Source of the DNA: Dehalococcoidia bacterium
GTDB taxonomy: Bacteria; Chloroflexota; Dehalococcoidia; GIF9; AB-539-J10
NCBI GenBank assembly: GCA_040766535.1
Contig: JAXGQG010000008.1
Span: forward strand, 411-64,410
DNA: 64,000 nt
Reading direction: 5' to 3'
Of the stretch, positions 34,827 through 41,488 are shown one piece after another. Position 1 is the stretch's first letter. Each line of letters opens with the position of its first letter. Under the pieces are notes generated by a model, which was not told the DNA's origin, searched no databases, and saw only the letters and a list, made by a program, of their open reading frames with translations. The translations under genes were made by a program, and so were the position numbers.

Positions 34827-36247
34827 ATGACGGTTACGTTGCGGAGATTGGACGACTACCGCTGGGAGATTCCGGTGGCTCACAAACAGGGCATGCGTGT
34901 GCCCGGTGTGGTCTATGCCTCGGAGTCGATGATCGATTCCATACTGAATGATGAGTCACTGGAGCAACTAGCGAACGTGGCCTTTCTGCCGGGGATCGTT
35001 GGAAGATCCATGGCGATGCCGGACATACACTGGGGCTACGGGTTCCCGATTGGGGGAGTTGCGGCCACGCGTGTCTCGGATGGTGTTATCTCCCCGGGAG
35101 GCGTTGGGTACGACATCAACTGCGGCGTTCGGCTGTTGCAGAGTAACTCTGAAGGATGATGTTCTGCCGAGAATCGATCCGCCGATGGAACGGCTCTTCC
35201 GCAATGTTCCGTCAGGCGTCGGGTCCGAGGGGCGGTTGCGTCCACCCAGGACGGAGATTGCCCGGCTGCTGGTGGAAGGATCGTGCGGGCTGTGCTGAAT
35301 GGATTCGGCACACGACGACGACCTCGATGCTACTGGATGGCGGACGAACCTGACGGGAGCGGATCCTCGCCGGCGGTGAGCGACCGCGCCATGACACGAG
35401 GCCGCCGCAGGCCTAGGCCCCGGCTCCGGGAACTGGCTTCATCGAAGCGCAGGCCGTCACAGACATCTACGATGCTGGAGGCGGCGGCGGTGATGGGCAT
35501 CACGCACAGCGGCCAGGTGCTGGTGCTCGTCCAGCAGGGTCGCGGGCCGGGGATACCGCGTCTGCACGACCACCAGTAAGACGACGGAGGCAACAGCGCG
35601 CATCTCGCCGCCGATCGTCAGCTCGCCTGCGCCCTGCGCGGCAATCCACCGAGGGGAGCCAGTACCTCGCCGCGATGGTGCGCGGTCAATTTCGCCTGGT
35701 GCAACCGACAGCACATCGCGCACTGGGTCCGGGATGCCTTCCGCGAGGTGTTTGCGACTCTCCGGCCTGATGCGTCAGGTATGACATTGCGCACAACATC
35801 GCCAAAGATCGAACGGCACGTTATCGAGGGATCGGCAGATGACCCTCTGCAGCATCGCGCGCTTACGCGGGCACTGGTCCACCGCACCATCCCGGCTTTT
35901 GCCTGACCGATACGCACATATCGGCCAGCCTGTCCTCATTCCCGGCGACATGGCCAGTGTTCGTATGTGGCTGTGGGAACCGCACTGGCGATGGCGGAGA
36001 CGTTTGGCTCAACGTGTCACGGCGCATATGTCGGCGTTCAGCCGTAGCGCTGCTCGCAAGACGGCTGGCGACATCCAGGAAAGCCTCCGCACCCGCACAT
36101 CCACGCGTACGGGGGATGCGCCTGCGCTTCGGCCGGGGAAGAAGCTTCACCTGCGTATAAGGACGCAGTTCGACGTCGTTGCAGTCGTACGGTGGCGCGG
36201 GTACCGCCGAAGTGTCAGCCGAGCTGCTGGGCGTCATTAAGGGGTGA
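34827..36247 (+). pseudogene. rtcB: RNA-splicing ligase RtcB, multiply frameshifted (at least 8 frame changes)
   Basis: RtcB segments are readable in alternating frames: [36 protein letters not shown], then LFRNVPSGVGSEG, AVSDRA, GSGNW/FIEAQAVTDIYD, AVNFAWCNRQHIAHWVRDAF, GQPVLIPGDMAS, ETFGSTCHGA and a terminal ..VIKG stop. GAGGGAG RBS before ATG 34827. Confidence 0.85.
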
Positions 36248-36434
36248 ACGCCGAGCCCCTACACTATGAGCGGCATTCGCCTCCTTCCCCGTCAACGAGA
36301 TGGGGTCCGTGGATCTGTTGCGAGTTCGCGGAGTTGCCGCAATCCGTCGGCAGGCGGCACGTACACGACGAAGGCCCGGCACCAGTGCCGGGCCTTCGTG
36401 ATCTGTGCGTATGCTCATGAGGGGAGGTTCCTGA

Positions 36435-40064: not shown

Positions 40065-40118
40065 CTCCTCGGTACTCCTGCGGCGTCCTGGTATGAACGC
40101 CTGATCTGCAGATCGCGT

Positions 40119-41488
40119 TCGCTTCTTGGCTTCCTGCATCAGCCAGGGTCGGAACCCCGGATGGGCGATCTGACTGCGGTCCATCGCCCTCTCACGAACA
40201 TTCTTGCCAGCGGTACGCGATGCCGTACTCGGTTACCACGTAGTTGACATCCCTGCGGTTCAAGGTGACGCTTGCCTTCCGAGATCGACGGGACGATCCC
40301 GGAAACCTCTCCGCCCGCGGCTTGCCGATGGTACGGCCAGAATCGTCTTGCCGTTTATGCGAGGAGCGCCGCGCATGAAACGTAGTGTCCGCCCACTCCG
40401 CTGCAGAACTGGCCTCGATGATTCTGACGTGTAGCCTGACTCTAGGTCGCGTCTATCTCCAGCGCACCGTTGATGGCCACCATGTTCTCTTGCTGCGCAA
40501 TGATGAGCGGGTTGTTGTAGTCAACTGGCGGAAATCGCCGGATTGTCGTCGAGCCCATACGTTTTCCTCCGACCCATGCAGAACGTGGCGACCGTCTTGC
40601 CGTTAGTCGATGGTCTTGCGCGTGTTGTCGACTGTCGCAAAAAAAAAAACATAACGTAAAAAAAAAAAAAAAAAAAAAAAAAAATCTTTTTCCTGCCTTC
40701 ATCAACTCGACGATGCCATCGCTCAGCAGCTGGTGTGCACGCCGAGGTGACGGCGCTCCGACAGGTTGACCATCACCGCGTTCGGGACGTTGCCGTAGCC
40801 GACCTGTGTCCCCATCCTGCACAAGCCTGGCTACATACCCGCCGAGCGCGGCAACAACCTCGCTATCCTCCTCCCCTACCCCGCGCCGGTATTCAAGCAA
40901 CGGCTCATCGAAGGGCATTATGTAATCTATATCACTCACGTGAATGAAGCTGTCCCCATGGACGCGCGGCATGAACCGGTTCGGTTGCGCGATCACGATT
41001 GCCGCCATGTCGGTAGCCGCCTTCACCATGTCCACGCTCACTCCCAGACTCATGTAGCCATGCCGGTCTGGTAGCGACACCTGGATCAGCGCAACGTCGA
41101 TCTTGATGATACCCCGCTTGAACAGCCGCGGTATCTGCGACAGCGACACCGGGCTGTAGTCCGCAACTCCCCGGTTGACCGCATTCCGCGTACTGTCCCC
41201 GAGAAAGAACGAGTTGTGCCGGAAATTCCGCTTGAACTTGTCGTCGGCGTAGGGTGCGAGACCCAACGACCACAGATGCAGGACTTCGGCGTCGAAGAAC
41301 CCTTTGGGGTGCGACTCAACGTACTCGATCAGCGACTGAACAAGATACTGCGGCTCGCCGCACCCCGACGCAATGAAGATGACGTCGCCGCGGTGGATAT
41401 GACTGAACACGCGGTTCACGGAGGCGAACTTATCCGGGTACGCCGCCCGCAGTTCCTCCAGGATTATCGAGGCTTCCTCTTGTTGCAT
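40119..41488 (-). pseudogene. acetyl-CoA hydrolase/transferase-family (4-hydroxybutyrate/succinyl-CoA:acetate CoA-transferase-like) gene disrupted by an A/T homopolymer insertion and frameshifts
   Basis: Intact N-domain (MQQEEASIILEELRAAYPDKF..SGCGEPQ..). After ..LLSDGIVELMKAGKR the reading runs through poly-F (a T-run on this strand). C-domain segments (GKTVATFCMG, PVDYNNPLIIAQQENMVAINGALEID, DL.SG.TSES, VNYVVTEYGIA) lie in shifted frames. Confidence 0.75.
40639..40684. repeat. homopolymeric A tract: A11-CATAACGT-A27
   Basis: Read directly: 11 A (40639-40649), CATAACGT, then 27 A (40658-40684). It lies inside the CoA-transferase coding sequence, in a window that is otherwise about 63-65% GC. 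Confidence 0.95.

Follow-up and report, generated by a model that had tools for sequence, protein, structure and literature searches.

A block within the window, i.e., the whole stretch of 64,000 nucleotides from a Dehalococcoidia contig that was analyzed here, is best explained as uncorrected sequence from error-prone long reads and not as a biological feature (positions 35,147 – 40,847; probability about 0.93). The block differs from two other assemblies of the same population, and its errors have the spectrum of read errors. That some kind of artefact is responsible can be regarded as practically certain, and it is very improbable that any reading of the block as real DNA applies. Two contigs of the Logan assembly of SRR27370447 (L050, L052) and two contigs of the NCBI MAG GCA_040774265.1 (L051, L053) served as references. 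The features of the locus are the following:

34,400 – 34,819, plus strand: archease; intact left flank, identical to L051
34,827 – 36,247, plus strand: rtcB (RNA ligase); clean to 35,146, then 28 frame changes; intact with 480 aa in L050 and L051
35,147 – 40,847, no strand: error block; about 9% per-base error relative to the same-population contigs, sharp edges within genes
36,435 – 37,461, minus strand: AAA_26 + DRTGG gene; 12 frame changes and one in-frame stop; 345 aa in the references
37,467 – 39,533, minus strand: ADP-forming acetyl-CoA synthetase-like gene (ACS); about 40 frame changes and two in-frame stops; 700 aa in the references
39,544 – 41,488, minus strand: acetyl-CoA hydrolase/transferase with C-terminal GNAT (CoA-transferase gene); 13 frame changes and the junk insertion; about 640 aa in the references
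40,633 – 40,694, no strand: low-complexity junk; 62 nt in the CoA-transferase gene, in place of 7 nt of true sequence
41,566 – 41,967, minus strand: mgtC; intact right flank

The thrS of the window retrieved an NCBI entry of 100% identity and a Logan entry that is nearly identical; the Logan thrS contig of SRR27370447 (L049) aligns to the window without gaps over 2,822 bp, at 99.86% identity. The frame-corrected ACS was used in a further search, which retrieved one protein from the Logan assembly (P0121) and one from the NCBI MAG (P0122). The corresponding contigs, L050 (5,548 bp) and L051 (7,422 bp), both contain complete genes for ACS (700 aa), the AAA_26-DRTGG protein (345 aa), RtcB (480 aa) and archease (139 aa); 20 SNPs and no gaps separate the two contigs. 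L052 and L053 were reached by exact look-up of the 555-aa ilvD product, with the start taken after the AGGAGG site. They cover the right side of the locus, where the CoA-transferase gene is open over 583 and 325 residues, respectively. When homologues of the CoA-transferase N-terminus were sought, the only same-population protein to appear was the truncated product of the window itself, and a full-text literature search gave no hits for SRR27370447, JAXGUP or GCA_040774265.

The block, as delimited by the first difference from L050 and L051 and the last difference from L052 and L053, has a length of 5,701 bp and extends over two convergent operons. Its left edge is located at codon ~107 of rtcB and its right edge at codon ~214 of the CoA-transferase gene. 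The preliminary description had extended the damage over 34,827 – 41,488, but rtcB is clean over its first ~107 codons, as is the CoA-transferase gene over its N-terminal ~214 codons. L051 and the window are identical at every compared position of 33,080 – 35,146 (2,060 bases, no differences). From 35,147 on, the same contig shows 233 substitutions, 65 insertion events (93 bases) and 118 deletion events (180 bases) over 5,362 reference bases, which corresponds to rates of 4.35%, 1.73% and 3.36%, respectively, and to 9.4% in total; the same events were seen in the comparison with L050. At the right edge, discrepancies at 40,847, 40,846 and 40,840 are followed by a 5-base deletion at 40,805, and from 40,848 to 43,125 both L052 and L053 are gap-free, L052 also without any differences (2,278 bp).

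With the two Logan contigs as reference, the interval 35,147 – 40,847 shows 227 substitutions, 69 insertion events and 126 deletion events in addition to the 62-nt junk, and the flanks, over 6,975 compared bp, show 7 SNPs but no indels. Indels thus amount to 195 events in 5,701 bp versus none in 6,975 bp (Fisher p ~1e-67), which excludes chance as the cause of the contrast. Flank identity is 100% for L051 and 99.9% for L050 and L052, with no indels. The earlier suggestion of a locally poor consensus quality is supported by two independent same-population assemblies with intact ORFs and flanks of 99.9 – 100% identity. Along the block the error rate is uneven, with ~13 – 16% at 35.25 – 36.25 kb and 6 – 8% at 36.25 – 37.25 kb. 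No further defective blocks were found in a scan of the 64-kb window, and GC content and GC skew show nothing unusual across the region. In tRNA and Rfam scans of the window nothing relevant was found inside the block; the three tRNAs identified all lie outside it, namely tRNA-Val (GAC) at 34,218 – 34,290 on the minus strand, between thrS and archease, tRNA-Met at 1,744 – 1,816 and tRNA-Arg (TCT) at 19,440 – 19,516. A stretch further to the right, 44,109 – 45,061, contains 20 SNPs within ~950 bp in the comparison with L053 and none in the comparison with L052; this appears to be another confined area of strain variation or recombination, which affects F420_oxidored/DUF2520 and panB. Two tandem genes on the plus strand in that part of the window, 44,852 – 45,778 (308 aa) and 45,828 – 46,682 (284 aa), both match PF02548 and represent a duplication of panB (ketopantoate hydroxymethyltransferase).

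The differences within the block disregard coding constraint. Substitutions are distributed evenly over codon positions 1, 2 and 3 (77/77/76), as compared with 204/133/1,079 for the genuine divergence between L051 and the relative L016. Of the 183 indel events in the comparison with L051, 168 have lengths not divisible by three. Indels are mostly 1 – 2 nt long and involve all four bases. They had been thought to exceed substitutions by far, but the 195 indel events (298 bases) stand against 227 substitutions. In the plus orientation of the window, 134 transitions are of the T<->C type and 32 of the A<->G type (binomial p = 5e-16), and this polarity is identical in the plus-strand rtcB and in the minus-strand genes, and in all three segments that were compared. 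The asymmetry is thus independent of the strand of the genes, which indicates that the errors stem from one physical strand and not from transcription or selection. Of the deletions, 56% are located in runs of at least two bases, with a background of 40%, and indels as a whole also show no more than a mild enrichment in short homopolymers. With an enrichment this mild, homopolymer-driven consensus error was rejected as the main cause. The junk consists of A11, cataacgt and A27 with their surroundings, the homopolymer part being located at 40,639 – 40,684. A11 and A27 are the only homopolymers of at least eight bases within the 64-kb window, and the segment is missing from L052, L053 and L016.

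Frame changes were located with a purpose-written frameshift-aware protein-to-DNA dynamic-programming alignment, in which intact orthologues from the relatives L001 and L016 were the queries. It replaced plain tblastn of the orthologue proteins, which gave overlapping HSPs through wrong frames that could not be interpreted. With L001 as the query source, 13 frame changes were detected in the CoA-transferase gene, 42 in ACS, 12 in the AAA_26-DRTGG gene and 27 in rtcB; with L016 the numbers were 13, 42, 12 and 28, and the coordinates were almost the same. When two shifts in an ORF overlap are counted once, ~93 unique frame changes remain. The preliminary description was right that rtcB is frameshifted, but its count of eight or more was too low, since 28 were found. 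Its statement that the genes of the block cannot be read as single ORFs holds: the longest open frame at ~35.1 – 40.8 kb comprises 279 codons, as compared with 300 – 800 codons for neighboring frames. No frame changes were detected by the same alignment in mgtC, thrS and infC. Two shifts each were reported in ilvD (vs L001) and archease (vs L016); each pair cancels itself out within an N-terminal extension that precedes the actual start codon, and both pairs were discounted, so that ilvD and archease proper also carry none and the flanking genes are intact, as previously described.

The family signal is kept within the block, also as described before. After frame correction, the genes of the block show 84%, 83%, 77% and 73% identity to L016, and the flanking genes show 86% (ilvD), 77% (mgtC), 88% (thrS), 95% (infC) and 56% (archease). 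By this measure, the block genes retain a protein signal as good as that of the flanks. Frame-corrected rtcB of the window aligns over residues 2 – 488 of the L016 orthologue. The archease gene (34,400 – 34,819, plus strand) shows 48 – 56% identity to the syntenic copies of L001 and L016, as compared with 77 – 95% for the neighboring genes; it has either evolved unusually fast or been replaced.

Where three genes had been assumed previously, the intact references and the relatives show that the block has four, which belong to two convergent operons. A GNAT plus acyl-CoA synthetase gene of the Pat type with about 1,200 aa, as was proposed, does not exist; it is a composite of three parts, namely the GNAT tail belonging to one gene, the 700-aa ACS and the 345-aa AAA_26-DRTGG gene. 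In the intact references, GNAT and ACS belong to different ORFs, between which there are a stop codon and 10 nt of spacer, and GNAT is the C-terminal part of the acetyl-CoA hydrolase/transferase encoded upstream. Pfam assigns to the intact CoA-transferase the N and C domains of AcetylCoA_hydro followed by the C-terminal GNAT, and to the intact ACS the domains CoA_binding, Succ_CoA_lig, Ligase_CoA_2 and ATP-grasp_5, which identify an ADP-forming acetyl-CoA synthetase. The further intact copies were assigned to AAA_26 + DRTGG, RtcB and archease; RtcB of L051 matches PF01139 over its full length (557.8 bits, profile positions 1 – 426 of 426). Among the intact neighbors, Pfam identified pheT, pheS, infC and thrS on the left and mgtC, ilvD and panB on the right. 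The window itself retains an ORF of 348 aa at 40,442 – 41,488 (minus strand), of which the N-terminal 190 residues match the N-domain of acetyl-CoA hydrolase/transferase in Pfam. This truncated 'acetyl-CoA hydrolase' is found as P0241 in an NCBI-derived protein collection, from the public 75-kb contig.

Relatives were sought with the clean N-terminus of the CoA-transferase in species-representative genomes and JGI metagenomes. The sequences found were MAG contigs of Dehalococcoidia/Chloroflexota with 74 – 90% amino-acid identity in the CoA-transferase N-terminus. The loci long enough for comparison, L001, L006 and L016, have one common gene arrangement in which all genes are intact: ilvD, mgtC, CoA-transferase (640 – 667 aa), ACS-like gene (~700 aa) and the 345-aa gene, and next, in convergent orientation, rtcB (~480 – 500 aa) and archease, then thrS. 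A clade-wide absence or decay of the orthologues, which had been considered as a possibility, is contradicted by these relatives, which carry all four genes intact and syntenic. The idea of a functionally linked module of RNA repair and protein acetylation is also unsupported; the relatives show two convergent operons, archease-rtcB and CoA-transferase/GNAT-ACS-DRTGG. The fusion of CoA-transferase and GNAT (~640 – 650 aa; 39,544 – 41,488 on the minus strand of the window, 2,438 – 4,360 in L016, 9,965 – 11,923 in L001) heads a conserved three-gene operon of this Dehalococcoidia group, with ACS and the AAA_26-DRTGG gene as the other members. In Pat-type protein acetyltransferases, an ACS-like domain is followed by a C-terminal GNAT. 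The locus resembles them in that a GNAT and an NDP-forming ACS-like region are adjacent on the same strand, but differs in that its GNAT resides on the separate, upstream CoA-transferase ORF, with the domain order reversed.

Most likely, the block would be essentially one raw read of the nanopore type, in the minus-strand orientation of the window, and the remainder of the contig is of finished quality. The platform (nanopore) and the single-read depth are inferred from the error spectrum alone. All of the frameshifts and in-frame stops, as well as the poly-A segment, are best read as sequencing errors, and the organism, a population of Dehalococcoidia-like Chloroflexota, has the four genes in intact form. 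In raw nanopore reads, A<->G errors are several-fold above transversions in read orientation and C<->T errors slightly so, deletions are the most frequent error class, and the total error of ~6 – 8% rises with GC, with occasional long spurious insertions (PMC8486125). The block shares with this profile the dominance of A<->G in one orientation, the mild elevation of C<->T, the excess of deletions over insertions, a total of several percent that is higher at high GC, and a long spurious insertion. Against the fit count the mismatches, which slightly exceed deletions where deletions should lead, and the total of 9.4%, which is somewhat above 6 – 8% (PMC8486125). In all other points the block agrees with the profile when taken in the minus orientation of the window. 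The uneven error rate along the block also speaks against a single raw nanopore-type read. Short-read contigs cover most of the block, yet the assembled contig kept the raw-type sequence. Fifteen of the 20 SNPs between L050 and L051 lie within 460 bp at the N-terminus of ACS (L051: 1,036 – 1,495, approximately 38,940 – 39,400 of the window). Both other assemblies end inside the CoA-transferase gene, the Logan assembly at ~39.7 kb (39,712 – 39,739) and the NCBI MAG assembly at ~40.4 – 40.5 kb (40,414 – 40,473). The SNP cluster together with the assembly breaks suggests that microdiversity may have hindered assembly or polishing. Strain microdiversity at the locus is a possible reason for the failed correction, as it breaks short-read assemblies and could divert polishing reads; the N-terminus of ACS represents a hotspot of such microdiversity and may explain the poor assembly of the block.

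An artefact of another origin, i.e., a low-depth consensus from another error-prone platform, failed or mis-targeted polishing, or several strains collapsed into one sequence, is the strongest of the alternatives and still unlikely. The variation of the error rate along the block is in line with it, as are the strain microdiversity and the ends of both short-read assemblies inside the CoA-transferase gene. PacBio CLR errors, however, are mostly insertions with few mismatches, and do not fit the order observed here, with substitutions (4.4%) above deletions (3.4%) and insertions (1.7%). Collapsed strains should produce differences that resemble SNPs and not 195 indels. The transition asymmetry on one strand fits a single read orientation and argues against these other origins.

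A real, very recent and strain-specific pseudogenization of the four adjacent genes, driven by indels as had been suggested, is rejected as highly improbable. The ORFs are disrupted, the public record annotates the truncated 348-aa product, and closely related strains coexist, all of which such a process could produce. The divergence of ~9% inside the block is nevertheless set against a complete lack of differences in the 2,060 bp and the 2,278 bp directly outside. Neutral decay would also alter the synonymous sites of the flanks, so the near-identical flanks contradict pseudogenization. The edges are located inside genes and not at gene ends, the transition asymmetry follows one strand regardless of gene orientation, and a run of A27 would have to be inserted into a genome of 60% GC. 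Approximately one indel event per substitution was observed, but in known bacterial pseudogenes the ratio of indels to substitutions is far below ~1:1. The genes are intact in the same-population contigs and in distant relatives, and the disruption is common to none of them. Genuine pseudogene clusters formed by reductive evolution, e.g., in Mycobacterium leprae, also contain adjacent genes with frameshifts and stops. True pseudogenes, however, show matching neutral divergence at neighboring synonymous sites, begin with inactivation at the level of the gene and are common to close relatives; the block shares with such clusters the adjacent disruption but lacks the matching divergence of the flanks, the gene-level onset and the sharing by relatives. 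About as improbable is a true hypermutated tract of 5.7 kb in one strain, with ~9% changes and ~200 indels beside intact alleles; if it were true, it would imply an unknown and extremely mutagenic event of patch repair or replication. Least credible of all is biological local hypermutation or a 'cryptogene', i.e., a real but scrambled stretch of DNA that the organism tolerates or corrects in its RNA, as nothing favors it other than the survival of the protein signal through many frame changes, the indels involve all four bases and not only U as in kinetoplastid editing, substitutions (4%) are present as well, the same population holds intact DNA copies, and to our knowledge no RNA correction system of the cryptogene type exists in bacteria.

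False pseudogenes that result from long-read errors are well documented (Kastor, PMC12007338; nanopore MAGs, PMC8103633). As in the block, indels split genes that are intact in the references, and similarity persists in alternating frames. The usual residual errors are genome-wide, linked to homopolymers and well below 1%, unlike the single 5.7-kb stretch described here, which carries ~9% errors including substitutions in an otherwise essentially perfect contig. The case is unusual solely as a sharply bounded block of raw-read quality inside an otherwise finished contig. In the absence of reads, artefact and decay can be told apart by the identity of the flanks to a same-population contig, the uniformity of substitutions over codon positions and strand-asymmetric transitions. 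As P0241 shows, the artefact has already spread to public protein databases, with at least one false, truncated product. The block has no biological importance, and the practical worth of the finding is that of a quality flag on the public contig. Left uncorrected, the record would give the false impression that RtcB RNA repair and genes of acetyl-CoA metabolism have been lost from this Dehalococcoidia population.
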